Source: an uncultured Nitrososphaeraceae archaeon
GTDB taxonomy: Archaea; Thermoproteota; Nitrososphaeria; Nitrososphaerales; Nitrososphaeraceae
NCBI GenBank assembly: GCA_963825865.1
Contig: CAWGVG010000021.1
Coordinates: 169,709-233,708 of the forward strand
Length of the DNA stretch: 64,000 nt
Direction of reading: 5' to 3'
The notes beneath the pieces are model-generated. The model saw only the letters and a list, made by a program, of their open reading frames with translations, had not been told where the DNA came from and did no database searches. Made by a program: the position numbers and the translations under genes. Positions 5,843-64,000 of the stretch are shown here, piece by piece (the first letter of the stretch is position 1; each line of letters opens with the position of its first letter).

Positions 5843-6012
5843 CCTTGCGATAATCACGCTTGTGGCTTCAGATTTACATGAATTGATGAAATTCCTATAA
5901 TATTCGTTTGAATTATACCCAGAAATTTGATTGATTTTGATTTTGATTTTCTGTGACATCGGTTGTTGGTATCAGTATCAGAAAACTGCTATTAAAGTCC
6001 ATAACTACATTA
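5843..6012 (-). repeat. right long terminal inverted repeat (170 bp)
   Basis: reverse complement of 1917-2090; encodes the same MSQKIKIKINQ...SEAT N-terminus (ORF 5753-5959). Confidence 0.95.
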
Positions 6013-6157
6013 ACTAAAATAGTTGTTTTATATATAATTTTTTGCACATATATATATATATATATGCTATCTCAGCTAACTTGACAAGGCATATCTCGTT
6101 AAAATTAGCGATTTGGGTTTAGTTAACTATATTAAGTCTTGACATCGTTTCAATTTT

Positions 6158-7208
6158 ATGAAGGCAGCCGTATTTCGGGAATATAATAAAGATCCTACAA
6201 AAGTTGTGAAGATTGAAGATATTGACATGCCAAAATTGAAACCTAACGAAGTTATGATGAAGGTAGAATCAGCATCATACAATTATAATGACCTTTGGGC
6301 TATTTGGGGAGACCCGCTTAAAGTTCCAATACCACATATTTCTGGCAGCGATGTGGCAGGTACCTATAGTAGAGGCTGGCGAAGATGTTACAAAATTCAA
6401 GGTCGGAGACAGGGTTGTCTCACATTCTAACTTAAGCTGCAGAGTTTGTAATATGTGTACATCTGGGAGAGAGTATGACTGCAATGATAGATTAGTCTGG
6501 GGATTCCAGACGGGTCCACTGTGGGGCGGTTTTGTTCAATATACACATCTACCAGAAGTAAACGTTGCCAAAATACCGGACAATATATCATTTGATGACG
6601 CAGCCGCAATCTCAATGGTTGGAATGACTGCATGGCACATGTTAGTAGGCAGAGCCAAGATAAAGCCTGGTCAAACAGTCCTGATCATGGGTGGGACCAG
6701 TGGAGTAGGCATGGCAGGAATTCAGATTGCAAAATTATACAACTGCACCGTCATTGCTACTGCAGGTAATAAAGAAAAAATGGACAAATGTTCAGAGATA
6801 GGCGCAGACTATGTAGTTAACCACAGAGAAGCAGATTGGCATAAGAAGGTAAGAGAGATTACAAAGAAACAGGGCGTAGATGTTATCTTTGAACATATCG
6901 GCAAAGCAGCATTTGCACAAGAAGTTGCCCTTTTGAAGATGGCTGGAACTCTTGTAGCGACAGGTGCAACTACTGGTTACGATTCAACTATTGACTTGAG
7001 ATATCTCTTCTTCAAAGGAACAAACTTGCTCGGCTCCACTCAGGGAACTAAAGCTGAACTAGAAGAGGTAATTTATTGGACGGGCAAGGGCAAGATAAAG
7101 CCCATTATTCATACAATTCTACCCTTTAGTGACATGGTAAAAGGCCATATAATGATGGCTAATGCTGAACAGATTGGAAAAATTCTAACTACACCACAGA
7201 AACTCTAA
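6158..7208 (+). CDS. Zn-dependent MDR-family alcohol dehydrogenase (candidate acryloyl-CoA reductase-type enzyme of the 3HP/4HB cycle); one frameshift near 6362
   Basis: PHISGSDVAG, structural Zn CRVCNMC..C, GGTSGVG NAD(P)-binding loop; split across ORFs 6158-6430 and 6288-7208. Confidence 0.88.
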
Positions 7209-7244
7209 TCTTCATCCTCCTTCTCTTGTCTTTCATACATACAG

Positions 7245-8165
7245 ATGATGTTCAGAAGTCTGATATTTGTTCCTAGCAACATCAAGCGTTTTATTAATAA
7301 AGTTAAGGTAGTAAATGCGGATATTATATGCTTTGATCTAGAAGATTCTGTCCCTGTAAATGAAAAAGCTGTCGCGAGGCAGACGATCATGGAGGCGCTG
7401 ACACAAAGGACGGAATATAAATCAAATGTCTATATCAGGATAAATTCCTTTGAATCTGGTCTAGCACTTCTAGACCTAAACGCAATAATTCGCAAGGGAA
7501 TTGATGGAATTGTCATACCAAAGGTAAATGACGAAATGGAATTTTCCAATCTAGTAGATCTTATTTCTACTCTTGAGCAGAAGAGGGGAATTGAAAAGAA
7601 CAGTATCAAATTGATGCCATCTATTGAAACTGCAAAAGGTGTGGTTAATGCTTATTCCATAGCAAAGACAGTTCAAAGAGTAAATGCGTTAGTTTTTGGA
7701 GTTTTTGATTTCCTTTATGATATGCGTCTTGATTATGATGAAAATGATGGAATTGAATATGCATATGCTCGCGCCAAAGTCTCTGTTGATGCAAGAGCTG
7801 CAGGAGTTGCCGCTATTGACGGCATCTGGCAAAAAGTCGACGATATTGATGGGTTAAGAAAAGATGCTATAATTGCAAAGCGATTAGGATATTCAGGAAA
7901 GAGTATAATTCATCCTAATCATATAGAAACAGTTCACAAAATTTTTGTCCCAAACAGAAAAGAAATTGAATGGGCAAAGAAAGTATTGGAAGCGCTGGGT
8001 GAAGCAATGGAAAAAGGAGCCAACAGAGGTACAGTTAAGCTTGAAGGAAAAATGATTGATGCTGTACATTACAAACAGGCAAAGGCAATTTTGGATGCTA
8101 TAAATAATAATAAAAATAAAAATAATAATAAAAATAAAAATTTGAATTTAGAAAATCCAAAATAA
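7245..8165 (+). CDS. CitE/HpcH-family CoA-ester lyase (citryl/malyl-CoA lyase-like)
   Basis: RSLIFVP, FDLEDSV, YIRIN, IETAKG, GKSIIHP and GKMIDA motifs. Confidence 0.92.
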   Translation: MMFRSLIFVPSNIKRFINKVKVVNADIICFDLEDSVPVNEKAVARQTIMEALTQRTEYKSNVYIRINSFESGLALLDLNAIIRKGIDGIVIPKVNDEMEFSNLVDLISTLEQKRGIEKNSIKLMPSIETAKGVVNAYSIAKTVQRVNALVFGVFDFLYDMRLDYDENDGIEYAYARAKVSVDARAAGVAAIDGIWQKVDDIDGLRKDAIIAKRLGYSGKSIIHPNHIETVHKIFVPNRKEIEWAKKVLEALGEAMEKGANRGTVKLEGKMIDAVHYKQAKAILDAINNNKNKNNNKNKNLNLENPK

Positions 8166-8166
8166 C

Positions 8167-9410
8167 GTCATAAAGATTGTCGGGAAGGAAACCCACATTT
8201 CTTTAGAAGTGGGAGGAATTCCCGACTATGATAAAAGCTAAATACTGGGTTATTGATAGATATTTCCAATATTCTTGCTTCAATCCCTAACGATCAGGCT
8301 TGAAACTTCAGAAGAAGATAAAATCACTTTGCTAGAGACTATGAGAAAATACAATGAAGCATGCAATTTTGTTGCTGAAAAAGCATTTTTCTTAAAGTTA
8401 ACTAACAAATACAAACTGCATAAGGAAGTATATAGAGAGATAAGAGAGAAGTTTAACCAAAGTTCTCAGTTCGCTGTTAGGATAATAGGGAAGGTTGTAG
8501 AGGCATACAAAAGAGATAAAACAACCAAGCCCAAGTTTAGAGAACTTGGAGCAATCCAATACGATCAGCGCAATTCCAAAATAGGAATTGACAAAGTATC
8601 AATAATGACATTAAACGGAAGGATCAAACTTGCAACCAGGATAGGCGAAGTACCAGAAATCAAGGTTTGACAGGGTAAAAGGGCAATCTGATTTAATTTA
8701 TAGAAATGGAATTTTCTACCTAATTGTAGTTGTTGATGCATCTGAGAAATCAAATGAATACGATCCAGTAGGTGCTTTAGGCGTTGATCTAGGAATTGAG
8801 AATATAGCAGTAGATTCAGATCGGCAGGTATTTGAAAGCAAGAAAGTTGAGAAATCAAGGAAAAGGTACTCTGGATTACGAAAGGAATTGCAGAAGGTAG
8901 GGACTAAATCAGCAAAGAGAAAGTTAAAGAAATTATCAGGTAAGGAACGAAGATTCAAGAAGGATGCTAACCACGTTATATCAAAGGCCATTGTCTCAAA
9001 GGCTAAAGGCACAGCTAGGGCTATAGGGATGGAAGACTTGACAAATATATGCACAAGCTCTAGGGCAACTGTTAACTTCAAAGGTAGCAAAAGAGACAGG
9101 CATTCAAAATGGAGCTTTGGAGAATTGAGGAACTTTGTAACGTACAAGGCAAAGAATGAAGGTGTCCCATTGAAGATTGTAAGTTCTAAGAACACTTCAA
9201 GGCAATGCCCTGAATGCGAATACATAGATCAGAGAAACAGAAAATCAAGGAATGAATTTGAATGCCTTCAATGTGGCTATAATGAAATGGCGGACTATGT
9301 TGCAGCAAAGAATATTGCTGCCAAGGCTAGGGCTGCAGTCAATCAGCCTATTGTAGCACCTCTTTTTTCGGTAGTTACAAGCCCACATACTTTAGTGGTG
9401 GGTAGTTGAC
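8167..9410 (+). mobile_element. IS200/IS605-family TnpB-only (IS1341-like) element
   Basis: left hairpin GTCGGGAA..CCCAC..GTGGG..TTCCCGAC (8179-8226), right hairpin CCCAC..GTGGG followed by TAGTTGAC (ends 9410); no tnpA; boundaries approximate. Confidence 0.8.
8275..9409 (+). CDS. tnpB: TnpB RNA-guided endonuclease (frameshifted between ~8640 and 8720)
   Basis: YNEACN N-terminus; RuvC-I LGVDLG, RuvC-II GMEDL, Zn finger CPEC...CLQC, RuvC-III ADYVAAKNI. Confidence 0.92.
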
Positions 9411-9439
9411 ATAAAATTATAGGATACAATATACCCAGC

Positions 9440-9502
9440 CCTCTAGTGCAATGTAATTTTATACTTGCTTGTTTATTTTAAATTGTTGATTAATTAATTG
9501 AT
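9440..9502 (+). repeat. attL-like direct repeat
   Basis: CCTCTAGTGCAATGTAATTTTATACTTGCTTGTTTATTTTAAATTGTTGATTAATTAATTGAT. Confidence 0.9.
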
Positions 9503-9530
9503 TAATCGGTATCTAATACTGGTTTATTAG

Positions 9531-10140
9531 ATGGATGATGACATTATTTTTCATATATCTATGAAAAAAGATGCACCTTCTTTTTATCATCATCAAACAA
9601 CGGATACCTCTTCTTCTTCTTCCATTACTGCTGATTATAAATCGATTGAAAGTAATTCAGAACTGTTATTTGATCGAAAGGTTGATCAAGCTACGGCAGG
9701 CTTAGATTCACACTATCGTGAGAGCCTAAAAAACAAAGTATCAAAGGAAAATGCTCTTGCAATATCAAATTTCGTCCTTGCAATGAAGTCTGAAATCAAT
9801 CTTTCAGATCATTATAGAAGGCTAATTATTACAGTGCTATGCAAATTCTCTTGCTTCCACAACAACAATCAGAAACCCTTTAGTGAAATATCTAGAGACG
9901 ATGTACTATCTTATCTGGACAGCCTTCGCAAACCAGAAGTGATAGATCCGTTGCATAAATGGTTAGGCACGTACAACCTTTACAGAATGTTATTAATGAG
10001 ATTTTTCAGATGGTTTTATTACCAAGATATAGAGCCAAACAAAAGACCAAAACCGAAGGCAGTTGAAAACATCGCCCAATTGAAAAGGAAAGAGCAGTCA
10101 ATATACAAACCTACTGACTTATGGAGCAAAGAAGATGACA
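9531..10140 (+). pseudogene. integrase N-terminal (core-binding) fragment, catalytic domain lost
   Basis: EINLSDHYRR, ISRDDVLSYLDSLRKPE..DPLHKWLGTYN..RFFRW, KPTDLWSKEDD as in Nitrososphaera-type integrases; protein-like sequence stops at ~10140. Confidence 0.78.
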
Positions 10141-10373
10141 TCTTCGTCATGAATATATCTAGGTGTAGCCGCCATAATCAGACAATCATATTTTTTAATT
10201 TCTTCTTCAATGTCCTCTAATAAATTTGACGGTGACTGCGTATATTTTCCTACTGTCCCTCCGGTAGAAAATCCTTTTGATTGCGCTAAATTTATAACAT
10301 TTTCTACAAAAGGTTTATCCTCTTCTCTCGAACTACAACTTAAGAAAGCTTTTATATTTTGATCGTCTGCCAT
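10119..10373 (-). pseudogene. TIR-like/NDT-like flavodoxin-fold domain, N-terminal fragment
   Basis: KAFLSCSSREEDKPFVENV and IEEEIKKYDCLIMAATPRY resemble TIR betaA-alphaA and alphaB-betaC; truncated. Confidence 0.55.
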
Positions 10374-11098
10374 TAATTGCTTAACAGAATATTATCAAAT
10401 TATTGTATTTTTAGGTTACTTGTTGTTTATTTCAACTTTTACTATTTTATGATTCATAAGGACCATTTATTGCTAATTAGCTAACTATCAGATTTTTGTA
10501 GTCAAATTTTTTAGCAATTCCTACGCCTGCATTCTATAACTATAGCGCTGTTACTACTGCTATCTTCGTCTTCTTTTCCGACGCATTGCAGGTTGTAGTT
10601 ATATGCATCTTTGTTGAATGCCTCTCATTGTAATTCTTCTTGTACACGTTCATTCGTTTAATTGCTGATTGAAGCTTGTGACAGAAACCATTTTTGATTA
10701 TATGTAGATTGGTCTGAACTAAGCTGACTCTGTGTTAGTTCAAGATGAGCCCTTTCATACTGCAAGTCTTTTATTCCATCCTTCGCATTGTGCATTTACT
10801 TGTGATGCTCTACTATCTAGAGCTATAAACACTAAAACTAACAATATTCCAACTATTGTGCTTGCTGTAGTCAAATACCCTAGCTGTTTTAAGCTGCCCT
10901 TTTTGATGTTATTTTAGCTGCAAAATTTTGTCAATAGCGTGTGTATACCATGCCACATAGAATTTCTTTGTTTATAAAATTTTTCATTGAAATCAACTAA
11001 AATTCAGTTTGTTTTAGAACAATTTTAAATGACTTTATATAATATTATTCATCCTTCGCTTAAGAGTATCGATGTGGTGCATTTTGTTACCTTAAATA

Positions 11099-12430
11099 GT
11101 GGGCTGTGAATAATTAGCCCTGGAAGCATTTCACACACCTTGTAAGGTCGGGTCTCCCTGTTTCTACAGCTGTCTTTGTCACCAGTAACATCACCATACT
11201 GATACACATTGAATGTAATGTAGCCCATTCTGTTCCTCTATGTTTTAACGAATCAAGGTTTAGCGAACCTTTTCCAATGGAGAATCCTTGTTCCGATAGT
11301 GTCCTTGCATCAAATTCCTTATCGAATTCTTCTGAGCCTGGGTCTACCCAGTAATTCTTGATAAAATTTCTGGCATAGAATCGATAACACAGTACCTTCC
11401 TTCTGGCCTTCTTCTCTTCTGGTGTGGAACCTTTAGATCTTCTTGTATTGAGCGGTATGAATGGTACTGCCTTCAGCCTTTTGACTATCTGTAGCCTAGT
11501 TTTATAGCCATCATATTCAGCATCTGCTAGGAATTTCCTGATTTTGATGAGAGGTAGATTCAGCAATACCATTTTGATAAACCATGAAACAGTTCTATTC
11601 TCTCCGTAACCTGCTTTTGTTATAGTAAGCATCACTGGAAGTCCAGAATCAGAATCAATCGCTACATGAACTTTGTATCCATAGACGTACTTTTCCCTGT
11701 GATGGTCCCATGTCCATGAAGCATCTCTATCTCTGCTCCTGTTACGCCTGCATTCCTTCTTATCGTGTCTAGGATTGTTACTCCATCTGCAGCCCTTGAA
11801 CCAAGCCCATATTATAGAACAGTCAAGGCTTACCTTCTCTCCTTTGATTATACCGAGGTTTATCAGCTGAATTACTACCTGTATAAATATTTCCAGCATC
11901 TTCTCCTGTCCAAGCATTCCAGCAAACTTGTAAAAGGTACTCCTGTCAGGCACCTTGTACTTTGTCTCTCTATGTACCGTCTTATTCAAGTTAAGTGTTA
12001 CGAGCCATTGATTATGAGCATTTAGAAAACGTATTAGATCCAGTATGCTCTCCATACTTTGTAGATACATCAGCAACAATGCCATGAATATAGAACTAGG
12101 ACGATATCCCTTGGGTCCTGACCTTTCCTTCCTGCCAGGGTCTACTATCTTGTCCACAAACGCGAAATCTGTTTTTGCAAAAATCAGTTCTGAAGGAAAT
12201 GAATCCTCTCTTACTGGTTTAGGTTGTTGTTTCCTATGCTTGCCGTCTTTATCTGCCTGTTGTTTGTATCTGCTATTCCCACAGGAGCCATTATCATCAT
12301 GGATAAGAGCTCTATCACAGCCATTGCTTCGGATCTATTATCACCAAAATCAATCCTTTGGGACGGTTCATAGCTTTACCGAATGAATCTGATTGACAAA
12401 ACGGTAAGATGCTAATTATTCACAGCCCTC
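11099..12430 (-). mobile_element. IS5/IS1182-like insertion sequence (1332 bp)
   Basis: 20-bp TIRs G(T/A)GGGCTGTGAATAATTAGC at 11099-11118 and 12411-12430; TAAATA duplicated at 11093-11098 and 12431-12436. Confidence 0.9.
11114..12157 (-). CDS. DDE transposase (DDE_Tnp_1-like); true start probably further upstream
   Basis: PDRSTFYKF, SLDCS, DRDASW, YGYKVHVAIDSDSGLP, FLADAEYD, R..SE. Confidence 0.9.
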   Translation of the reverse strand: MDKIVDPGRKERSGPKGYRPSSIFMALLLMYLQSMESILDLIRFLNAHNQWLVTLNLNKTVHRETKYKVPDRSTFYKFAGMLGQEKMLEIFIQVVIQLINLGIIKGEKVSLDCSIIWAWFKGCRWSNNPRHDKKECRRNRSRDRDASWTWDHHREKYVYGYKVHVAIDSDSGLPVMLTITKAGYGENRTVSWFIKMVLLNLPLIKIRKFLADAEYDGYKTRLQIVKRLKAVPFIPLNTRRSKGSTPEEKKARRKVLCYRFYARNFIKNYWVDPGSEEFDKEFDARTLSEQGFSIGKGSLNLDSLKHRGTEWATLHSMCISMVMLLVTKTAVETGRPDLTRCVKCFQG

Positions 12431-12729
12431 TAAATAAAATGAATATCAATATTTGTACAAGAATCGTGCTCTGATGGTGATAGTTGGAAATGAGTACAAT
12501 TTCTGATCTTCACAAAATGCTAAGAGAATACAAAGGCAGTAATCCTTATGGTTATTCGAATCTAAGAAAGAAATATACAAGACGTGATAGAGTTGTATTA
12601 AAATCAGGATATTTTCTTGGATAAGCTTATGGTAATTTGCGCAAATGTTGGCGTGGCTATAAAATTGCAAAGAATGATGGAGATGAAGAGAATATGATTT
12701 ATTATGCAAAAGGAATTCAAAAATATCAA

Positions 12730-13003
12730 GTACCGTCAAAAGTCCCACTAATTAGTTTTCCAATGAGTATTGTAATGCGAGAACTTCATATTCCTATACC
12801 TATTCCTGGAGTTCCCTGACCATTTGCTATTGCTGATACTGCTGTTCTCGAAAGCGCTATGTCAAAAACAGGATTCAGAAACATACATATTGAAAGACTT
12901 ACTGTAGCTTTTGAATTTGCTACAGTAGAAGATTATATTAGTTATACCAAAGCGACTGCTGCTCCAATTAAGAGCATATTAAATAAAGAACCTGTAAAGG
13001 TGA
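12730..13003 (+). pseudogene. class I SAM-dependent methyltransferase C-terminal fragment
   Basis: PGVP*PFAIADTAVLESAMSKTGFRNIHIERLTVAFEF resembles PGPFxLxD..L...AGF tails; in-frame stop. Confidence 0.5.
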
Positions 13004-13106
13004 GTCTTAGTATTCCAAAAGAGTAAATTGTTCTGCTCATACAGCGTAGAACACCTTCTTTTACTTATTTTTGTTGGCCTTTATTAAGACCATAATGTGA
13101 ATGTTA

Positions 13107-13681
13107 TTATAATGATATGAGTTCCTTATACCGAAAGCAACAGATAGTATGATCATTTACCATTCCAACAGCCTGCATCATAGAATAACAAATAGTAGAT
13201 CCTACAAAAATAAAACCTCTTTTCTTCAGATCATTGCTCAATACATCAGAAATTTGTGTCCTCGAAGGAACGTCGGTCCAGCTTTTCCAATGATTTTGTT
13301 TTGGTTTTCCATCAACGAAGCTCCACAGATATGAGTCGAAGCTCCCAAATTCTTTCTGTACCTATTATGAAAGCCCTTGCATTTTTTACAACGGATTGAA
13401 TTTTTAATCTATTTCTTATTATAGATGGATTTATAAGCAGTCTGTTGAAACTTTCCTTTATCATAATTGGCAATCTTCTGAACATCAAAATTGTCAAATG
13501 CTTTTCTGTATCCTTCTCTTTTTTTAAGTATTGTAGCCCAACTTAGACCTGCCTGTGCTGATTCTAGTAACAAGAATTCAAATAGCTTATTGTCGTTATG
13601 AACTGGAACAGCCCATTCATTATCATGATATTCAACATCAATTAGACTGCCATTCTCGGCCCATTTACAACGAACTTTCAT
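13107..13681 (-). CDS. tag: DNA-3-methyladenine glycosylase I (frameshifted)
   Basis: RCKWA, YHDNEW, LFEFLLLESAQAGLSWATILKKREGYRKAF, IIRNRLKI, GMVNDH...C across three frames. Confidence 0.9.
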
Positions 13682-13986
13682 TTGCTTATGATTTATAGAT
13701 CAATGATTCTGTGGATATATACTGATATATCTAATTTGTTTCTGTTTTTCTAAGTGTTTCATAAGATGAAATACGAGAACATTATGGACCGATGAAAGTG
13801 GAATAGCTGGATGTATTGGATTCAATTAAAGCAGCAAATTATATGAAATGACGTGAAGCTTTTTCAAAATATGACTCCGATAACATCTGCTAAGCAAGAA
13901 ACTTACTTTAGCCTACCATTAAGTACATAGATATCACATGTAATAATTAAAGCATGCTTTTTTGTTCTATGATTCAAATTATTAAT

Positions 13987-15014
13987 TGTTGGTACTTACA
14001 GTGATAGGTTACACTTTCGATTACCTACATAGGTTACACTTTCTTGCTTCTTCATTCTGCATACAGTCGAATTATTGAATCTTTGTATAAACATCTCAGA
14101 TGGAGTCATACCGTTTATTCCACCATGTTCTCTAGTTTCATTATATGCTTTGACAAACATATCATACCTTAGTTTTCCATCATCAATACTTGCTATATCT
14201 TCAATTTTCAGGAACTCATTCTTTACAATCTTGTTATATGCTTCTATCTTTCCTTGTAACTGTGGATAGGAATTTGGAATTGGTTTATCCTTTATATCAT
14301 TCCTATGCAGAAAGTGTTTGAATATTTTAGATGTAAACTGCTTACCGTTGTCATGCATAGTCTTTTTGGGCTTTCCGTTATCCATAATCCACTCCTCTAG
14401 TACATTCAAAACATCAATGCTCCTCTTTCTTTCAGACCACTTGCTAGCAACTTTTCTTGAACAGTCATCTATACAGTTTATCATGTAATTTCGTGTGTTG
14501 GAATAACGCAGATAAAAAGGTCCAAGAATATCCATTTGTACCATATCATTTGGATGTCTCATTTCAAATCTCTTGTACTTTCTATTATTCTTTATCTTAC
14601 ACTTGAGGATGTTGAGATCATGTTTCCTTAATGTCTTGTATATGGTTCTGCTACTCAATGATATTCCGATTCTCTTTAGTCTGAACCTGATCCTGTTACA
14701 GCCAAATCTCTTTAGCCGCAAATCTAGTATTGCTTCTTCCATCTTCTTGGTTGTCTTGTACTTGATATTATGAGGTGTCCTAGACAGGTCAGCGAGACCT
14801 TCTATTCCTTGTATTTTATATCTATTCTTCCACTTGTAGTACGTCTTTCTGGATACACCATATTTCCTACAAATACTATTTACGGTGTTACCAGTCCATT
14901 CATATTCATGAATGAGATTGAATTTTGTTCTAATTTCTATAGATATCCACTTCCTAGCAGAAGTGTTACCTATGTTTGTAGGTGATATTGTCACCTATCT
15001 CTGTAAGTACAACA
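13987..15014 (-). mobile_element. IS481-like insertion sequence, intact copy (1028 bp)
   Basis: TGT...ACA ends, subterminal ATAGGT(T/A/G)ACA repeats, ATTAAT duplicated at 13981-13986 and 15015-15020. Confidence 0.92.
13996..14994 (-). CDS. IS481-family transposase (HTH + rve integrase core)
   Basis: CRKYGVSRKTYYKWKNRY HTH; QMD, IDDCSR, HDNGKQF and QGKIE DDE motifs. Confidence 0.93.
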   Translation of the reverse strand: MTISPTNIGNTSARKWISIEIRTKFNLIHEYEWTGNTVNSICRKYGVSRKTYYKWKNRYKIQGIEGLADLSRTPHNIKYKTTKKMEEAILDLRLKRFGCNRIRFRLKRIGISLSSRTIYKTLRKHDLNILKCKIKNNRKYKRFEMRHPNDMVQMDILGPFYLRYSNTRNYMINCIDDCSRKVASKWSERKRSIDVLNVLEEWIMDNGKPKKTMHDNGKQFTSKIFKHFLHRNDIKDKPIPNSYPQLQGKIEAYNKIVKNEFLKIEDIASIDDGKLRYDMFVKAYNETREHGGINGMTPSEMFIQRFNNSTVCRMKKQESVTYVGNRKCNLSL

Positions 15015-15045
15015 ATTAATAACGAGTGATAAAATCGAGTGCACT

Positions 15046-15109
15046 CCTCTAGTGACAATGTAATTTTATACTTGCTTGTTTATTTTAAATTGTTGATAAA
15101 TTAATTGAT
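15046..15109 (+). repeat. attR-like direct repeat
   Basis: CCTCTAGTGACAATGTAATTTTATACTTGCTTGTTTATTTTAAATTGTTGATAAATTAATTGAT. Confidence 0.9.
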
Positions 15110-15187
15110 AAACAAGCTTTAATTTTCGATACCACGGTCTATATATGTTTTTTATAGAGTCGAAATTAATGATAAACAAGAATAGAG

Positions 15188-15799
15188 ATGTTTACTGGCA
15201 TCATCGAAGGAATTGGTGAAGTAAAATCAGCATCTAAATTTAAAGACAAGAACAAAGCAGCAAGTATGAGACTAAGCATATATCTTGGGAAGATCTATAA
15301 GGGTTTAAAGGTTGGCAATAGCGTAAGCATCAATGGGACTTGTCTTACAATTACAAAACTATGCAAACGAAGAACAGCGGATTTTGAGATTGTAGGAGAA
15401 ACTATCAAGCGCACCTGCCTAGGTTTAGTAAGACCAGGCGATAAAGTCAATATTGAGAGAAGTTTACGAGTGGGCGAGAGGTTAGAAGGGCATATCGTTC
15501 TTGGTCATGTAGATGCGACAGGGACAATAAAAGAGATTATTACATCCACAATAGAGACAAAAATATGGATAAAAATTGAGAAGAGAGAGGTCTTACGTTC
15601 AATTGTCTCCAAGGGATCAATAGCAATAGATGGAGTAAGTCTGACGGTTGTAGATATAAAAGATGATAAGGTTTCTATTTCTTTAATACCCCATACTTTA
15701 GCCAATACTACACTCGGATTGAAATCAAATGGCGACAAGGTTAATGTCGAGATAGACATAATTGGTAAATACATCATTAACAACTTACCAAAAAGTTAG
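15188..15799 (+). CDS. ribC: riboflavin synthase alpha chain (bacterial type)
   Basis: MFTGIIE N-terminus, SVSINGTCLT, GHIVLGHVD, KGSIAIDGVSLT. Confidence 0.96.
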   Translation: MFTGIIEGIGEVKSASKFKDKNKAASMRLSIYLGKIYKGLKVGNSVSINGTCLTITKLCKRRTADFEIVGETIKRTCLGLVRPGDKVNIERSLRVGERLEGHIVLGHVDATGTIKEIITSTIETKIWIKIEKREVLRSIVSKGSIAIDGVSLTVVDIKDDKVSISLIPHTLANTTLGLKSNGDKVNVEIDIIGKYIINNLPKS

Positions 15800-15854
15800 T
15801 AATTACTCGAATTTTAGTAAACTATATAATGAATTTCTGTTGCAAACTACTTAT

Positions 15855-16539
15855 TTGTCTCAAATTGAAGAAGCAATAGCCGCGTTACGAGACGGTAAAT
15901 TCGTTCTTGTCCATGATGATAAAGGTCGTGAAGATGAGGTTGATATGGTAATTGCTGCAGAACATGTTAGACCACAGCATATTGCAACAATGAGAAACGA
16001 TGCAGGAGGATTACTTTGTCTAGCTATTGCAAATGAAATTACAGTAAAATTGGGTCTAGTATATATGCACGACATAATACAGAGCCTATCAAACATCAAT
16101 CCAATATTTTCGAAATTAACTAGTGGCAAATCACCATATGGCGACAAACCATCTTTTTCAATTTCTGTAAACCATCGCGATACATATACTGGAATAACAG
16201 ATGTAGATAGAGCGTTGACAATTTTTAAAATGGCAGAAGTATGTAAGGAAATTGACTCCAGCGGAATAGATGAATTTGCAAAGGATTTCCGAGCACCAGG
16301 CCATATCCCAATTTTAATTGCATCAAAAGGCCTTCTTCAAGAGAGAATGGGACATACTGAACTTTGTATATATCTGACTCAGCTGAGCTAGATTGATTCC
16401 TGCAGCAGCGATTTGTGAAATGCTGGATTCTACTACGCACAGAGCATTGTCAGAGAGCCAGGCAAAAAAATATGCAGACAAAGCTGGCATTCCATTAATA
16501 GAAGCAAGCCAGATAAAGACGTATACCAAGGCGGCTTGA
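15855..16539 (+). CDS. ribB: 3,4-dihydroxy-2-butanone 4-phosphate synthase (frameshift near 16388)
   Basis: DDKGREDEVD, GLLCLA, TGITDVDRA, PGHI, RMGHTE; AICEMLD in shifted frame. Confidence 0.93.
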
Positions 16540-33086: not shown

Positions 33087-33791
33087 TCTGATTTAGAAAA
33101 GGGTTCGGTTTCCAAATTTAGACGTTTCTTCTTCCTACTACTATTTGGCCATGTTGTCCAAATCAACATCATCACCAATTACTACAACTGCTGTTGCATT
33201 AGCTGAAAGGTTGTAAAGACTTACGATGAATGATATGTTATTCAACTTAGAAGGAAGGAAGGTACAATTGCCGATTTGAATAGCATAATCAAATGTAATA
33301 CTACTTTCTGAAATCATATTCTCTTCAATCTATCCTATAGTGGTAAGAGATTACTTCTATAAAGGAGCCCTGAAAGTCTAAGGGTAGCTTATGATGATTA
33401 ATATAATAAAAACAATTGATTGATGTCACTTTATCTATAATTTAGTTATAACTGAATCTTACTATTAACAGGTAAATAAGTAATCTAACGATATTTCATA
33501 AATCAGCAGTAACTTACTCAAGTCAAATATATAGTATGATAGTGATACCTGGTAACATATGAACAACACAAAAAGCAAACATCCAAGCCTAACTCAGACC
33601 TTACCTTTCTTTCCTTAATATATAATCTAGTTATAATTGAATGCTACTAATAATAGTTAAATCAATAATTTCACCTCATTTGATAGTATCAATAGTTATA
33701 GCCAATTTGTTAACATTAAATCATACTAGATAAATCAGTATTAACTTCCTCAAGTCAAATATACAGATAACATTGTATAAGAATAGTAATA

Positions 33792-51313: not shown

Positions 51314-52244
51314 GTGGAGAAAAAATTGGTAAGAGATATATCAATGTTTAGCGGTAATAGATGTCCCCGCTGTGGAAAGGGCCCAATGGTTACTGATAAC
51401 TCTAGCGGAGAGATGTTCTGTGGTAACTGTGGATTTGTGGTTACTGAGAGAATAGAAGAAACAGGGCCTGAATGGCGTGCATTTTCTAAAGAAGAACATG
51501 AGGACAGAAGCCGTGCAGGTATTCCTACGTCACTTGCTATGCACGACATGGGTCTTGCAACCATTATCGGACCTGTCGACAAAGATGCTTCTGGAAAACC
51601 ATTGTCTGCATCAATGAAAAGTACAATTGAAAGGTTAAGAACATGGGACAGCAGAAGTCAGGTTCACGAGCCTGTCGATCGTAATTTTAGACAAGCATTT
51701 AGTGAATTAGATAGATTAAAGGATAAACTAGCAGTAGGCGATGCTGTAATTGAAAAGGCTGCTTATGTATATAGAAAAGCTCTTGAAAAAGGACTGGTAA
51801 GAGGACGATCAATTTCTGCTTTGGTAGCAGCTGCGCTTTATGCTGCCTGTCGAGACACAGAAACACCAAGAACACTAAAAGACATTGCTAATGCAAGTAA
51901 CATCAAGAAAAAAGATGTTGCAAGATGCTATAGATTACTTATCAGAGAACTTGATCTCAAAATGCCAGTAGTAGATCCAGTCAAATGTGTTGCAAGGATT
52001 GCAAGCAAAGCTGGGCTTTCAGAAAAAACAAAACGCAAAGCACTTGAAATATTAAAGAAGGCGGAAGAAGGCAAGATTTCAGCTGGCAAAGACCCAATGG
52101 GTCTTGCTGCAGCGAGCGTTATATGTTGCCTGTGTAATGAATGGAGAGAATAAGACACAAAAAGATGTTGCAGAAGCAGCAGGTGTAACTGAAGTTACTA
52201 TCAGAAATCGATACAAAGGCCTAAAGCTCCACCTCAAGCTTTAA
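51314..52244 (+). CDS. tfb: transcription initiation factor IIB (frameshift near 52115)
   Basis: CPRC..CGNCG Zn ribbon, GPEWRAF, two cyclin repeats, [20 protein letters not shown] in shifted frame. Confidence 0.96.
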
Positions 52245-55380: not shown

Positions 55381-55439
55381 TAATAAAATAATAATAAATT
55401 AAGATTTTGTTATTGTAGAACGACAACTATTTTAGTGAA

Positions 55440-55514
55440 TGGATGGGGAGAGATTTGAACTCTCGACCACCTGTGTGTGAGACAGGTATCCTAACCAAGC
55501 TAGACTACCCATCC
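55440..55514 (-). tRNA. tRNA-Val(CAC)
   Basis: acceptor stem GGATGGG/CCCATCC, anticodon arm CCTGT-CTCACAC-ACAGG, T arm GAGAG-TTCAAAT-CTCTC; no intron. Confidence 0.96.
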
Positions 55515-55792
55515 AGCTGAGTATATATAATCACAACACACCCAAGAGAAGCAGTTACAGTTTTTCAGATAAAGTTGAATATATGGTTATTGTTATTTCA
55601 GGATATATAATAATACCAAGATATATTTTTATCATTCCATTATATCTACAATGTGTTTGATATTATAACTGAGCGAAATAAAAAGGAATTATTATTATTA
55701 TACTTTCTCGTTGTAATTAAAATAGCCAAAGGATATAAGAGACTTTCATATACTATACTATAACAGACGCTCGTTAAGAAAACAAAAACTAG

Positions 55793-57076: not shown

Positions 57077-57404
57077 ATATTACTTTACGTTAGAGATTTT
57101 CGAATAAAATACAAAATTACGTTAATGTTACGTAGTTTGACATGCACAAAGTTATATATATCATTTTTGCGAACCTTATACTAAAAATATTAACTAGAAG
57201 TAGTGTGACAGAAATGGTATTATTAACTAATCAGAAGCAACTTGTTTTTTATTATTTATCCACGTTATCTTATTTCAATGTTTTTGTGTCTAAAGACTCT
57301 ATATAGAAATAATCTATATGAGATTGATAGTTTAAACACCATGGTCTATTGATTTAACAATAAAGGACGCATTTACGTTACATTCAATGGTTTAACAATC
57401 AAGA

Positions 57405-57763
57405 AAGTAATGCCATGCTAAAAGCGGAGGGCTTTGTATCAGATGAAGGTTCTGAAGTTGAAAAGCTAAAGCCAGTCTGCTACTGCAGCAACTGTAATGA
57501 AGCTAATATCAAAAATGCCAAGTGATGTTCAGGTGCAGCATGGTTGTTTTGTCATTTTCCGGCTACCAAGAAACGCTTAAAGAACAAAAGCACAAAGACG
57601 AGAAGAGAAAATTGACCTGATTGAAAAGAAGCAGGCTTGAAGTACAAAGCAATCAACTAAAAGCTTTGATAATATCTGCACTAGGAAACATTAATGATCA
57701 GAGCCAAGTTAATCAAATGGCTCAAACATTATACAGTTCTGGTATTTTGAATGCATCTCAGTA
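57405..57763 (+). pseudogene. integrase C-terminal (Zn-ribbon tail) remnant
   Basis: LKAEG...LKPVCYCSNCNEANIKNAK*..RCSMV..YQETL..QMAQTLYSSGIL resembles the tail of Nitrososphaera-type integrases; stops and frameshifts. Confidence 0.55.
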
Positions 57764-57915
57764 GTCATCAAAAAAGCATGGGAGCAACCAATGAATCATT
57801 ATTATAATCAGCTTTTGAATTAAGGTGTCTTGTGGTTGTTTCAATCCTATATTAGTCAGATACGATTGTTAACCTTAACACAGCCGGCTCAACTCACACA
57901 TCTGGTTCTTCGAGT

Positions 57916-59559
57916 TTACAATCCCAGCTTTTTCTTCATCTTTGCAACAGGAAATGGAGGCAGATTCTTTCTGGAATTTCTTGCGTCTGTATTTTCGATA
58001 TCCTTAAGAAGTTCTTTTAACACATTTCTACCCTTCTCTGTTTTAGCTGCCTCTACGGGAGTCATGTTGTCAAGTGCAGGTATTTTCAAGTAAAGCCAAT
58101 TTTCATAGTATTCTTTAAAGTAATTATCGATTTGCTGTTTTACTTCATTAGGGAGTTTATCTTCAAAAACTTCTTGCTCTGGAACCTTTACTCCTCGTTC
58201 TCTTTCTCCTCATCCTCACTCAATCCATGCTCATGTTTTTCATATTCCATCCAAGAGTCCTGTCTTATACCTTCAGTATTAGGTGGCATCAACTCGGAGT
58301 AACTATCGCCAAGGTGTATGAGATGTTTGCTACCAACTAGACGCAGGATTGTGTCATTGCACCTTTCGAGTAACCTGTCTGATAGGCACTCAACTATTAG
58401 CATCTTTCCTGTTAGTGATAGATTTCCAAGGACCCGATAGGGCGTATATTGTTCTCCTATTTTGTCTTTTTTGTCTTTTTTGTTTTTGCCTTTGCTGCTT
58501 GAATGCAACGAAGTATCTTTCTCCTCGTTAGGCGGCAACCACAGGATTGTCCTGAAGGTCAGCTTTTCTGGTTCTGATACATAGTCTGTTTTCTGCTCCC
58601 CTCTGCGTGTGCCTGTGTTTACATCCTGATGATGATCACCATTTTCATAACCAAATTGTTTGTTATTCTCTAATTGTTCAATCCAATCATATCTTATCGT
58701 TTTTCCTTCATTTTCTAAACGCGCAAACTCTTTTTTTGAAGAGTTTAATGCTAACAGAACGCTACGCCTGTTTTTTTTAATAGCAAATTCACTCTTACAA
58801 AATACTGAAATATCGCCTTCAGGAGTCATGACTGTTGGACTCAATTCTTTTAATGAATCCAAATAATGTATAATTGAAAGACTTTCATTCCTTAAATATG
58901 TGTCAAAAGCTAGATTTCCCGTATTATCATTTAATTGGTGAAATTCTCTTGAGCTCCCAAGGTTATACAAAACATATTTTTTAATATGAGGCAAAAAATG
59001 ACGAGCCAGTATAATCCCGCTTCCTGCAAGTCTAGTTATATTTCCTATAGGATATGGTCTTGAATATAGAATATCATATTTGTTCAAAGATTGAGAAGAT
59101 GACCTATCATGTACAAAAAACTCATTGGTTTCATTGAAAATATCTTTTACCTTATAACCTACTCCTCTTCGAATATCTAAAATTTCTAAAAACCTCGATA
59201 CAGAGTCAGACCATGCTTTGACAGTATCTTTTTCTAGATCAGTAAGAGTGCTTTCATATTCTTTAGTAAATAACTTGATTATAGTATTATTTTTGTTAGG
59301 TACAATGTAATCGTGTATATACCAATCATAAAACAACCTTCTGTCAGCAAGGTCGCTATGGCTATTCACGTCTTCTTTTCCATAAGCTATCAAGGCACCT
59401 TCTCTGTCGAAGAATTCGTTACAGTATTCGTTTATTTGTCCCCTAAGTTTGTCCTCTAAATCATCACATCTCGATTCTTTCCTGGTCCAGACTAAGACAA
59501 CAATGTTTGTATTTCTTCTTGCTACCACATGGACAAGGAGAATTTCTGTCCGATTTCAA
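57916..59559 (-). CDS. SEC-C motif protein with C-terminal Xre/MbcA/ParS-like antitoxin domain (frameshifted)
   Basis: RNSPCPCGSKKKYKHCC; LFYDWYIHD; shifted tail YYENWLYLKIPALDNMTPVEAAKTEKGRNVLKELLKDIE. Confidence 0.75.
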
Positions 59560-59737
59560 CCTACAAGGAATAAATAAACACAGCAATGTGAAAAGTATTT
59601 CTGCAAGGTCAAAGAAAGAAAGACTGAGTGAGTGAGCTCTTCTCACTTGGTTGTATGATGATACGAATGAGACTTTTCAGATGATTTCATTGATGATTAG
59701 ACTGATATAATAGCAGTTGGTCAACTCTCAATGTTAG

Positions 59738-61470
59738 TTGGTCAACCAGGGCCCCAGAGATGAGGATGCAAATTTATTGCCACAAGAGATGGAGGAAAAG
59801 AAGAAGCAGAAGCAATTACCATCATCATCATCATCATCATCATCACGACATGGACAAATTAGAGTAAAAGAGCGTAACGTTGTATCGATAAAAGCCAAGA
59901 AGAATCAGCCTCAGTTTGTATATAATCGAGCATATGTTGGAATACAGGCTGGAAAGTGCCAAGAGTATATTATAGACGGTAACACTTCGCTTCTAACAAG
60001 AGACGAACGCTTCAAGGAATTTATGGACAGGCCGTACGCAGTTATTCCCCAAGGAAATTATAAAGAAGAAGAAGGAAAAGCTTACCTGTTGATATCTCCC
60101 AAATGGACTGGTTTTAGAGCAGGGTGGCTGGAATCACAGACTGAGACCTACAACATTTTTCGAGTTGATAGATATGTCGCTTGGTCTGGATTAGTTCCTG
60201 GACGATCTTAAAGAAGACTTTGACTTATCTCCTAGGTATTCTTCGATCAAAATATTACAGAACGGTGATTACATTGTAGGCAATGAATTTGAGCTTGAAG
60301 ATGCTTGGATAAGATACAGAGAGCATCTGCTGAGAAAGGAAAAAGATATCGGAATACGAGTCAAATCCACAGCTTCTGCTAGGTTTAATCTTGCTTCTAA
60401 GCTAGTATCCGATGGCGTTATTCCATGGACACCAAGAACAGTAAAAAATCAACAATCGTGGAAATGGCTCACTGATATCAAACTAAGACCATACCAACAA
60501 GAAGCGATGGATTTCTTCATAAGGCATGGCGCAATGACACTTGTCTACCCTTTTGGTGCTGGTAAAACACTATTTGGAGGTACAGGCTATCTCTTGCATA
60601 TCAGATAGGACTCTAGTAGTAGTACCATCGGTTTCTCATATAGCAGTATGGCAAAAATATATTGAAGAGCATCTTCTCAAAAAGAATAACATTAACAATA
60701 ACACACAGCCTCGGATAGCATTATTGTATGGAGGAGCTAGTAGAAAGGACACAGCCAAAAGATACGCAGATATAATAATATCCACATATGAAAGTGCTTT
60801 AACACATCTGACAGACGAGCGATTCAGACTTCTTGTCTTTGATGAGTGCCATCACTTTCCAGCTAACACCTATTCTAGGCTTGCTTTTTTAGATGCAGAT
60901 TACAGGTTAGGATTGTCAGGTAGCCCTTACAGAGAGGATGGCCGTCTCTGAGTTAATTTATGTACTTTCAGGCTACCCTTATGGAAGTGATTGGGATAGG
61001 CTCTTCGAGGAAGGATGGGTTAAAAAACCCGAGATAGATTCTGCATATTACACCTGTAAAGCTATCTTTTCTACAATCTCTACTTCAAACTTTGAAAGGT
61101 AATACTGTTGTATTCTGTGATAGTCTGGCTATAGGTGAAGAGGCATCCAGACTTACTGGAATTCCGTTCATATATGGAGAGCATAGTTTGAAGGAGAGAA
61201 TAGACGCACTAAATAATAATCAGAGGTTCATTTGCAGACAGAATATTTGATGAAGGAATGGATATGCCAGATGTAAAAAATATAATTGAACTTGACTTCC
61301 TTGGGGGGTCAAGAAGACAGCAACTTCAAAGAGTAGGAAGGCTTATGCACTCCCTTATAGATGGGGTTGAATACCATCTGCTCATGTCCCCAGAAGAGCT
61401 GAAAAAATATGAGAGGCGGCTGTATGGATTATACTCAAGGCAGTTTAAAGTGAATGTGGTAAAGCATTAA
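59738..61470 (+). CDS. XPB/Ssl2-like SF2 helicase (several frameshifts)
   Basis: LRPYQQEA, PFGAGKT, LVVVP, STY, DECHH, GLSGSPYREDG, DEGMDMP, QLQRVGR. Confidence 0.88.
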
Positions 61471-61587
61471 GAAAGATACGGGACAAGACGAATAACAAAT
61501 AAAGCAAGAGACATATAATATAATAACTTACCAAGACCAAGCTAATAATATAATATCGACGTCATTCTTATCAATTATCTCATCAAC

Positions 61588-62266
61588 ATGTCGTCATCAT
61601 CATCAGAAGTAGTAGACAGTAATAACGATGCCAGTTTAGGGGAGGAGGAGCAAGATGTAAGTGTATCGATAACAACACAGGCTATGAATGTACAATTCAA
61701 AGGTCCTCTACAATCTGTTCTTAAGAGTACCTGTAGATTTCTTTATTAAGCAATTTCCAAAAGTAGATCTAGCCAGGAAAATATCTCTATGCTATGATAA
61801 AGATTATCTTATCGAAAAGTATTCCAGCCTAATCAAAATCAGCCCTGAAGGAGTGCAAATGTTAGTTCAATCAGACACATCATCATCATCAACAGTAGAA
61901 GACATAATACAAGAAGAAACACCAAACGAATCAGGCCTCAAAGATGATAAGGTGGTCGCTGTGGCGGCAGGAGGAGCTGAATCTTCTAAAACCAAACACG
62001 AGGCAAAATGGTCTATCAAAGAGTTTATTGCTCTACAACTTGTTGCATCAAGGATTGCTAAAGGCCTTGGAATAGTCCAAGAAGAAGGCATGAAGATATC
62101 TGACATTGAGTCTGCTACAACTAAAGCCAATCCCAAATCAGTAACCCCAAGGTTATCAGAGATGATCAGATTCAGGACATGTAACAAAAGACTTGAGGTT
62201 TGGTACCGAAAAGTGCGGCAGAAACAAAAGAAGAAGAAGAAAAACCTTCCACAATATACAGAATAA
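61588..62266 (+). CDS. hypothetical protein with C-terminal winged-helix-like region (frameshifted)
   Basis: VQFKGP..SVL, DLARKISL, IKISPEG, IALQLVA, MKISDIESAT..NPKSVTPRLSEM. Confidence 0.6.
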
Positions 62267-62452
62267 CCACTGCTGGAATTCACTGGTTGAATAATATAAT
62301 AGACAAGAAGGTAAAAAGACTGTAAATGGATAATAAAAGAACATATACAAATATTGCTTAATTTCTGATACATTCAAAAGAATAGTTCAAAGATTTATGT
62401 TAAAGTATCTTTTTAGTCATCTATTCCCAACTACAATAGGCATAAAGTTAAA

Positions 62453-63973
62453 TCAGCATATCACAGACCTGGACTCGGTAAACCTGTAGTAGCACATTGC
62501 CAGCCTGAAGGCGTCAAATATATCGTCGTATGATGTGGCTTCCTTGTCCAGCATGCCATCATTTTCTACTGCCGTTCTTAGTGATGTTATAAGCTTGTCA
62601 AATTTTGGATTTATAGCTATATATCCCCCATCTCTTTCCAGGAACATTTTGCAGTTTCCAAGCATGGATTTGTGCTCAGTCTGCGAAACTTACAGGAACT
62701 ACATCCATGCTAAATTCATAATTTCGCTTTCTGCTCTTTGCTTCTTTTATTATTTCCTCGTATTCTTCGTCTTCGCCTATCTGTATTTTAAGAGCCCGTA
62801 TGAATGATGGGTTGGAGCCGTCGATGTATATCTTGTTTATCTTACCAAACCTCCTGAAGAGATCCCATACTACAGACAGCATCTGGTTAAAGTCAGGCCT
62901 CTGGTATTCCTCGGCATGCATTATCTGTATCTGGTTGTCAGCCCGCTGCGTAATTACAATTCCAAAAGCAGATGATCCAAAAGCTGGGTCTATGCCCATG
63001 GATTTCTGAGAAAATGAATTTATTTGATCTGGGCTGTATTGTGTACCTTTCTGTATCGCTGCTTCAATATCTTTGGTATGAAAGACATTTCCAATAAGCC
63101 CCAGGTATTTTAAATTGTACTCTCTTTCAAATGATGGCGAGGCTCTGGCTTTGTCTATCTCCTCCTGGGTGTATATTTTACCAAGGCCATAAGTATAATC
63201 CAAAAGCAGTCTTTTGTACAGGCAAGTTTCCTCGTCTTCTCTCTCTATATGTTCAAACAAGCCGTCAGGCGCATTTGGAGTTGAGACCATCACAATGTAA
63301 GGGTCTGACTTTGCAATGTAACGTTCGGAAACATGCCTGACATCTTCCTGTTCTCCTTTCCTGAAAAAGTCAGCTTCGTCTAGCAGTATGAATTTAGGGT
63401 TATCTAAAGCTCTGTAGGCGTCTATGTGGTTTGAAGGATATGCTTCAATTCTCCAGCCATTTAATTCAAGGACTGTTTCTTTATTTGCAAAAGTTAATCC
63501 CAGTTTTCGATCAAATAACCCTTTCATCCTCTTGATTAGCTTGATGGCAATGTCTATGTTAGGGCCTGTAACTATGCACATCTGGGAATTTCTATAGTCA
63601 TCATTTCTCAAGCAAAGCCATGCCATGAACCTGAGGAAAAATTCGGTAACTCCTAAGCCGGTTGCCTTCTTTATCCACAGATGCTTATCCTTGAAACCAT
63701 GATTCAGAGGATTGCAAAAGTCTGGCGAGAGCAAAGCCTCATACAGCAATTCCTGGTAGTCGAAAATTGGTTTTTCTAATCCGTCTTTTGTAGGCAAGCC
63801 AATTATGTGATTAAAGCGAGCACTCTCCTTTTGTCCTGATATCTTCTTGTTTATGCTCTTCTATGTCCCAAATCCAGAATGGTTTGTTCTGTAATTTGTC
63901 AAGAGACTGTGTTTGTTGTTGCTGTTGATTGGAGTCTGCTGTTTATCCTCCTCTTCAGGTCTTTGAATGTCAT
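62453..63973 (-). CDS. terminase large subunit-like protein (frameshifted), degenerate Walker A
   Basis: DYQ, KKATGLGVTE, Walker B FILLDEAD, VSTP coupling motif, FEREY, nuclease GIDP, IDGS, DDIFDAFRLA. Confidence 0.82.
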
Positions 63974-64000
63974 TGTTGTCCTGTTTCTTATCTACAGTAA

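Follow-up and report, generated by a model that had tools for sequence, protein, structure and literature searches.

A terminase large-subunit gene without head genes at a contig end of a Nitrososphaeraceae genome, and its likely relation to capsid-less integrated elements

The window analysed here, a stretch of 64,000 nucleotides (nt) corresponding to positions 169709-233708 of contig C21 of an uncultured Nitrososphaeraceae archaeon, carries at its far end, on the minus strand at 62453..63973, a homologue of the terminase large subunit (TerL) of tailed viruses. The named relatives of this protein are from Nitrososphaeraceae and Nitrososphaera metagenome-assembled genomes, and the window, with a G+C content of 35%, also codes for TFB, an SUI1-like protein, DUF2070 and S-adenosylhomocysteine (SAH) hydrolase; base composition and these genes point to an archaeon. 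The main open reading frame (ORF), of 373 amino acids (aa), matches the PHROG family phrog_2, 'terminase large subunit', with E=5.1e-18, and relatives reach E-values down to 1e-23. A profile of 48 family sequences has RB49 gp17 (E=2.8e-10) and T4 gp17 (3.4e-8) as its best matches among solved structures, and the homology to TerL profiles spans both the ATPase and the nuclease domain. In a Pfam scan of the window ORFs at the locus the TerL ORF gave no match above the cut-offs, Terminase_6C remaining sub-threshold at E=0.029. A sequence-only reading of the window had already called the gene a terminase homologue whose P-loop lacks the classical lysine while the Walker B, coupling and GIDP, IDGS and DDIFDA motifs are kept, and our searches agree with it on each of these points. 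The parts of the gene are as follows.

62453..63973, minus strand: TerL-like gene in four frame pieces, with 89.5% nucleotide identity to an intact 507-aa paralogue on contig C4
ATG at 63973, minus strand: first piece, MTFKDLKRR... and then a stop
63820..63882, minus strand: second piece, with the N-terminal PFWIW..H..GEC, reading ...PFWIWDIEEHKQEDIRTKGEC
62676..63797, minus strand: third piece, the main 373-aa ORF
62453..62665, minus strand: fourth piece, a C-terminal ORF of 70 aa
63645..63668, minus strand: P-loop WIKKATGLGVTE, K101-A-T-G-L-G-V-T108, with Val at the place of the classical Lys
63363..63389, minus strand: Walker B motif ILLDEADFF with the catalytic Glu (D197 at least 90% conserved, E198 invariant)
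63273..63290, minus strand: coupling (C) motif MVSTPN (S229 and T230 at least 90% conserved)
62976..62996, minus strand: nuclease acidic motif 1, GIDPAFG (D327 invariant)
62814..62831, minus strand: nuclease acidic motif 2, IYIDGS (D383 invariant)
62507..62530, minus strand: nuclease acidic motif 3, YDDIFDAF (D482 and D485 at least 90% conserved), in the separate 70-aa ORF as assembled

The window ends where contig C21 (233,708 nt) ends, so this assembly holds no further sequence upstream of TerL: it stops 26 nt into the conserved 5' leader of the gene, and any upstream partner gene is out of sight. The upstream context thus lies beyond the window even more strictly than had been claimed. The next gene on the 3' side is a convergent winged helix-turn-helix (wHTH) ORF on the plus strand, and the earlier statement that TerL is adjoined by this gene and by no portal gene holds.

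As assembled, the gene does not form one open frame but lies in four pieces. Measured against the intact 507-aa paralogue P0001 of contig C4 (L001:15722-17242), which served as frame reference, it has a stretch of +4 nt (net change +1) near 63932-63935 and single extra nucleotides at 63818 and at about 62680, and it lacks about 40 nt at 62468. Contigs of four public runs (X1, X2, X3 and X7, from four coded studies) were aligned to 60500-64000; run X1 possibly represents the source sample and is hence not independent. The indel evidence from these runs consists of the alignments listed, among which the site near 63932-63935 does not appear, and it concerns two positions in TerL.

63818: extra base that breaks the frame between ...GEC and FNHIIGLP; missing from the contigs of all four runs
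62680: extra base that parts the main ORF from the C-terminal ORF; two spanning contigs have one gap each

The two contigs that bear on the second position span 62612-62823 and 62630-62748, and their gaps are consistent with 62680, a site that is not itself among the alignments listed. Single extra bases at 60579, 60945, 61039 and 61238, in the neighbouring helicase gene, are lacking in 4/4 runs, as is the one at 63818, and those at 62171 and 62209, in the wHTH gene, are lacking in three of the four, with X3 as the exception at each. Otherwise the public-run contigs are 99-100% identical to the window. One contig of 873 nt aligns to 60737-61612 with no substitution and three gaps, and therefore derives from this locus and not from paralogues that are 92% identical. 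X1 also carries a 40-nt insertion at 62468, which is the segment present in C4 and missing in the window. Since the public-run contigs do not have the extra bases, the TerL frameshifts are likely assembly errors; at least one of them, and probably every one, would be of this kind, and the TerL gene is real and probably intact in the organism. Among the best 120 matches in public metagenome proteins the closest are about 95% identical to the window copy, too distant to bear on its intactness, and no RNA run was among the public runs listed for this stretch. The helicase, which lies in four ORFs in the window against a single 578-aa ORF on C4, is split by an assembly artefact. Frameshifts in this assembly should not be taken as pseudogenes without reads. 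Other seemingly truncated genes of the window, for example TFB at 51314..52153, may carry the same kind of error.

The sequence-only reading had proposed that conservation of GLGVT, the number of paralogues and the ratio of nonsynonymous to synonymous substitution rates (dN/dS) be checked, and the first of these bears on the altered P-loop. Conservation was scored in an alignment of 48 sequences, namely P0001, the paralogue on contig C48 and 46 of 150 listed cluster representatives picked as roughly full-length. K101, R186, E198, K220, E283, D327, D383 and K475 are invariant in all 48, and C50, C51, G104, G106, D197, S229, T230, D482 and D485 are at least 90% conserved, so that the loop consensus of the family reads K101-[A/S]-[T/R/G]-G-[L/I]-G-x-[T/S]-E. 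When the family profile is aligned to gp17, T4 K166 stands opposite V107, T4 R162 opposite T103, and K101 opposite a Leu. Table 1 of PMC6379665 gives the Walker A motif of lambda gpA as KSARVGYS. This has the spacing of the window loop (Lys at position 1, Gly at 6, no Lys at 7, Ser/Thr at 8), but its P-loop Arg is at position 4, whereas the window family has Arg or Thr at position 3, like T4, and no sequence similarity between gpA and the family was detected outside the loop motif. Walker A loops of this kind were reportedly named 'deviant' by Mitchell and Rao in 2004. Judged from these alignments, the window loop would be of the working deviant type, ordinary for its clade, with the first Lys used as in lambda gpA, so that K101 would reach the ATP phosphates, and the window TerL is most likely an active ATPase-nuclease. 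The suggestion of an ATPase-altered or decoy enzyme, which had been drawn from the missing lysine, does not survive an invariant K101 (48/48), the gpA spacing and an identical loop in viral TerLs. The case has corrective value, in that an absent Walker A lysine is no sign of lost function where a lambda-type N-terminal lysine is present.

The viral TerLs were found by a search of IMG/VR with an alignment of 12 sequences, which returned 51 relatives (contigs L032-L082); a search with a single protein returned none. These relatives are 33-50% identical over nearly the full length, and all 51 carry W[IV]KK[AS][TR]G[LI]G.. loops, a count that shows mere occurrence in viruses because the loop was one of two search patterns. 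A portal-like ORF lies 1-5 kb downstream on the same strand in 42 of the 51 contigs, and many have a capsid-like ORF as well. Both ORF families were grown by BLAST from ORFs of L047 and L078; those of L047, downstream of TerL, match the portal phrog_9232 and the major head protein phrog_544, and those of L078 precede a minor head protein. Eight of the nine contigs in which no portal-like ORF was found have at most about 3.1 kb after TerL, while L036 has 10 kb. The sequence-only reading had itself counted the same motif in bona fide viral terminases, alongside a complete head module just upstream, as refuting a repurposed terminase, and the motif does occur in these 51 relatives, 42 of them with a portal-like ORF. 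The TerLs of thaumarchaeal head-tailed viruses share the P-loop of the genomic copies but differ in context, 42 of the 51 viral copies preceding a portal-like ORF, and many a capsid-like one, and the genomic copies not.

A quick maximum-likelihood tree of 87 rows (17 genome ORFs, one provirus, 23 of 48 viral ORFs after removal of near-duplicates and 46 metagenome representatives) shows viral and genome copies interleaved, with a window-type clade made up of nine genome rows, one metagenome row and no viral row. Of the 23 viral TerLs in the tree set, four (L038, L039, L078 and L082) have an N-terminal H...CCFNH motif. Among intact paralogues dN/dS is 0.039-0.082 at synonymous divergence (dS) of 1.0-2.1, and the window main ORF compared with C4 gives 0.047; this check, with values of 0.04-0.08 across paralogues that differ by dS of 0.6-2.1, shows that the TerL family is under purifying selection.

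The count of paralogues, made by tblastn with P0001, gave 46 TerL-like loci in this genome, most of them short fragments. Near full-length copies in a single high-scoring segment pair (HSP) are found on contigs C4, C59 and C48 (41% identity), and multi-HSP copies on C61, in the window, at C3:225238 and at C62:200868. When it was asked whether fragment ends abut copies of insertion sequences (IS), truncated TerL loci were found mostly in single-copy flanks. Both ends of contig C21 lie in TerL copies, which indicates that these repeats break assemblies. The genome is, besides, very rich in IS: about 50 copies of a ~1.05-kb stretch (e.g. C59:15444-16500) share 98-100% identity, about 17 more form a second set at about 76%, and another stretch, ~1.17 kb long (e.g. 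C59:11630-12805), is repeated about 15 times.

Head genes do not accompany these copies, as the sequence-only reading had held for the window. Nineteen portal-like and ten capsid-like viral proteins gave no tblastn match in this genome at E<=0.01. With a TerL profile, matches were obtained in 39 of the 61 related genomes, this one among them, and in 30 of the 36 that belong to the same family (38/60 and 29/35 when the unpublished genome G034 is set aside); the count per genome ranges from 0 to 28, and many of the matches contain internal stops; a search of the related genomes with a single protein had given only seven loci. The three genomes of genus g2, two of them closed, gave no match to the TerL profile. 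A portal profile built from eight sequences matches only 1/61 genomes, at G003:C18. There, at 5449-13799 on the minus strand of L089 (G003:C18:12000-31000), lies a genuine provirus with a TerL of 503 aa, a portal-like ORF of 550 aa and further large ORFs; its TerL is very divergent and has a lambda-like loop, KSNKVGET. Among public protein clusters at 50% identity, viral members included, 3,898 match the family at E<=1e-3 and 596 at E<=1e-30.

Better-preserved relatives indicate what kind of unit such a TerL belongs to. ORFs within 7 kb of TerL were clustered for 17 loci from seven genomes. One neighbour, which we call gene X, lies upstream on the strand of TerL in 8/17 loci from four genomes, a tyrosine integrase is present in seven loci (five genomes), a primase in three, and a 233-aa ORF follows downstream in three. 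Gene X codes for 160-200 aa with a helix-turn-helix (HTH; weak matches to HTH_23, HTH_38 and Sigma70_r4) and an acidic tail that ends in NQVF. In this genome it yields 65 tblastn HSPs at about 45 loci, for example C59:20209-20832 (L083:1207-1809, minus strand), and its 3' tail persists as the leader of several TerL copies. At locus L095 in genome G012 the order is primase-helicase, X, TerL (phrog_2 at 1e-22), the 233-aa ORF and the integrase. The primase-helicase has D5_N and DUF5906 domains and matches phrog_864 at 5e-75, gene X stops 31 nt before TerL, and the locus is flanked on one side by a cupredoxin gene and on the other by Nre. A direct repeat of 18 nt, imperfect and with its copies 12,269 nt apart, marks candidate ends. 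In this genome, contig C62 (L006, G000 C62:191000-210999) carries at 7729-14599 an HNH endonuclease, X, a signal-peptide protein, TerL and a split tyrosine integrase, the TerL being divergent (about 36% identity) and frameshifted as assembled. In G013 (L091, G013:C146:44000-62000, at 9647-16040) an intact TerL is directly followed by a GmrSD-like DUF262+HEPN protein, then by NurA and HerA homologues, and by no portal; the GmrSD-like, NurA and HerA genes are defence-type cargo in the same integrase-bearing region. PHROG and Pfam scans of the neighbours at nine genomic loci and L095 gave no portal, capsid or tail match. The earlier suggestion of a capsid-less element therefore gains from relatives that sit with an integrase and a primase-helicase in elements without structural genes.

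A second family of small genes lies directly upstream of TerL at L014:9544-9990, and also occurs at L005 and L017; it matches the ORF in the position of the small terminase subunit (TerS) on soil viral contigs with an hhalign probability of 98.4% (E=4.6e-15). Gene X is small-terminase-like by its position and HTH content only. The ESM Atlas places gene X mostly in unnamed Nitrososphaerota clusters and in one viral HTH_23 set, which is a lead only. On contig C51, around 33349-33624, the C-terminal ~80 residues of a 494-aa prim-pol-like ORF correspond to the conserved C-terminal domain of X.

Taken together, these observations lead us to favour, with moderate confidence, the view that the window holds one of many copies of a packaging gene which belongs to capsid-less integrated elements of the NitKor-E1 kind and descends from terminases found in thaumarchaeal head-tailed viruses. 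Such elements would be about 10-12 kb long, with genes for a tyrosine integrase and a D5-type primase-helicase, a small HTH gene in the small-terminase position and a TerL in whose P-loop the N-terminal lysine, K101, most likely has the role that K76 has in lambda gpA. An element would replicate by its own primase-helicase, and its own terminase would cut the element DNA and load it into procapsids of a co-infecting tailed virus. Copies that stay in the chromosome would then decay and recombine among themselves, and would interrupt assemblies. The window copy would have lost its upstream partner gene, or have it past the contig end, and would now stand beside an unrelated 5.1-kb helicase segment, which would make it a still-coding stray or a young relic. 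The stronger claim, that the pairs of small gene and TerL are widespread satellites of thaumarchaeal head-tailed viruses, with their own terminase and no shell, loaded into helper procapsids, is put forward only tentatively.

Phage satellites that bring their own packaging specificity, being integrative and self-replicating and lacking a capsid gene while carrying one or more packaging genes, are exemplified by Staphylococcus aureus pathogenicity islands and other phage-inducible chromosomal islands (SaPI/PICI) and by P4. As a rule these bring no more than a small terminase or redirecting factor, and dependence on a helper is proven for them. The elements of the window family differ in carrying a complete TerL, and a helper is only proposed for them. 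In Archaea, only pSSVi and pSSVx had been described as satellites until 2025, both of spindle-shaped viruses, according to the preprint 10.1101/2025.02.15.638363, and a 2026 preprint describes a putative Asgard satellite that has no terminase. The nearest precedent is in the work of Krupovic et al. 2019 (PMC6563490), who report five TerL matches in 20 thaumarchaeal genomes. They describe NitKor-E1, in Ca. Nitrosopumilus koreensis AR1, as having TerS, TerL and a tyrosine integrase and no other recognisable tailed-virus gene; they term its terminase 'enigmatic' and state that no terminase had previously been identified in non-viral mobile elements. As described there, NitKor-E1 resembles the elements of the window family in being thaumarchaeal and integrated, with a terminase and an integrase and no head genes, but it is a single element of a marine genome that was read as a probable relic, whereas the family described here belongs to soil archaea, occurs in 30/36 genomes, is multicopy and under purifying selection, and comes with a primase-helicase. 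The likeness is one of described gene content, and the window copy has neither integrase nor partner gene in view. No description of the orphan TerL family was found in a literature search that left out the supplements of Krupovic et al. 2019, so that orphan terminases appear to have been noted once before in the searchable literature, as one enigmatic case.

In our data orphan terminases are a regular, multicopy part of Nitrososphaeraceae genomes, lying in integrase/primase elements without shell genes, and surveys that use TerL alone as a viral marker would count them as viruses. If packaging by a helper proves true, archaeal tailed viruses would gain their first satellites in these elements, which would be unusual in owning a whole packaging motor; their many chromosomal copies would shape genome rearrangement in soil ammonia oxidisers, which would matter for gene flow in the group that drives soil nitrification.

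Several points weigh against this reading. The satellite step is pure inference, with no helper virus, particle or packaging site seen, and the proposed contact between K101 and the phosphates is argued from alignment. Gene X, compared with the ORFs in the viral TerS position (14 clusters), reached an hhalign probability below 5%. No integrase, primase or X is found in the last 12 kb of the window, the nearest integrase-like pieces being about 60 kb away, and the closest paralogue, on C4, has membrane-protein genes upstream and not X. The low dN/dS could date from the viruses, before integration. A portal of the window type could be too divergent for detection, since the profile was made from eight soil viral sequences and the window-type clade has no viral member. 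Finally, the predominance of short fragments among the TerL copies of this genome is compatible with simple decay as well.

Plain decay, in which each locus is the remnant of a provirus whose structural genes were deleted and whose TerL is the most recognisable part, is the best of the other explanations, and we regard it as unlikely. It would fit the interleaving of genome copies with viral TerLs in the tree, the predominance of fragments, the many IS copies that could drive deletions, and the existence in G003 of a real provirus in which TerL is followed by a portal gene. It is harder to reconcile with 46 TerL loci against zero portal or capsid fragments in this genome, or with TerL in 39/61 genomes against a portal in 1/61, and the compact architecture of integrase and primase-helicase recurs in several genomes at a size, about 12 kb, that is too small for a head-tail module.

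Somewhat less probable still is that the host has retained stand-alone terminases for interference, cutting or mis-packaging the DNA of related viruses as a form of defence or superinfection exclusion. The strong purifying selection fits this explanation, and defence-type neighbours are present beside some copies, namely the GmrSD-like and NurA/HerA genes in G013 and a PbeA-like helicase beside the window copy. Yet PADLOC gives no match for TerL, in place of a conserved host locus there is a scatter of 0-28 matches per genome, many with internal stops, and the integrases and primases nearby point to mobile elements.

That TerL is a self-mobile gene, a single-gene unit spread by its own TerL-like ATPase-nuclease in the role of a transposase or homing enzyme, seems very improbable to us. 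The thought arises from the extent of BLASTN homology among copies, which is gene-sized, running from 55-70 nt before the ATG into the last codons, with mostly unique flanks, and from solo 5' leader fragments scattered through the genome. At a dS of about 1, however, neutral flanks would be beyond alignment while a constrained gene can still be aligned, which accounts for homology of this size, and the extra upstream sequence of about 100 nt that subgroups of copies share is the 3' tail of gene X. Alignment of ten 5' ends and seven 3' ends, together with scans of four full-length copies, revealed no shared terminal inverted repeats or target duplications; a 21-nt, 76%-complementary pair in the C4 copy was considered as a terminal repeat and rejected, being absent from the other copies. 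Solo segments of about 90 nt with the TerL leader or promoter and no TerL lie at C4:26475-26561, C40:22420-22561, C36:25923-26009, C45:12992-13080 and C49:34017-34099. That the terminase is dead as an ATPase and now serves as a nuclease or packaging decoy would explain a loop that has no Lys at the classical position 7 and a Thr in place of the T4 P-loop Arg, but is scarcely credible when viral TerLs with a portal-like ORF, several also with a capsid-like one, have the same loop, when K101 is conserved together with the Walker B Asp-Glu and the coupling motif, and when lambda gpA works with the same spacing.

The 3' side of the window copy has a history of its own. A repeated segment of about 5.1 kb abuts the end of TerL and holds three genes.

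57363..62468: repeated segment, three genes, abutting the TerL 3' end
58188..59646, minus strand: SEC-C-motif protein
59738..61470, plus strand: XPB/PbeA-like helicase with a long N-terminal extension, split by assembly indels
61688..62266, plus strand: wHTH gene

Copies of the segment lie at C21:1-5551 (inverted), C30:1-2300 and C4:31000-33707, which makes three to four copies at about 98% identity. It adjoins a TerL copy at three places, while a fourth, incomplete copy runs up to the end of a contig, and wherever the junction is visible the segment end abuts the TerL 3' end. The sequence-only reading had supposed that TerL might form an island with the helicase and SEC-C genes, which is right locally, at these three places, but the association does not extend further: the helicase, SEC-C and wHTH genes are not among the conserved TerL neighbours in other genomes (17 loci, seven genomes), and the segment is about 98% identical between copies against 89.5% for TerL. 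In the comparison of the window with C4, identity is 98.3% for the helicase (dS 0.043) and 96% for the wHTH gene, while TerL has a dS of 0.53; SEC-C is about 98% identical among the copies in the window, on C30 and at the start of C21, and C4 is without it. TerL itself is a mosaic, since its last ~270 nt (62468..62734) are 94-100% identical to C4, whereas 62735..64000 is 82-94% identical to C4 and equally close to C59. This mosaic identity indicates that TerL paralogues recombine with one another and that the helicase segment has a separate, recent history. A search for direct or inverted repeats at 57100-62700 found none convincing as segment ends. The sole tRNA or Rfam match nearby is a tRNA-Val at 55439-55515, which lies outside the segment.

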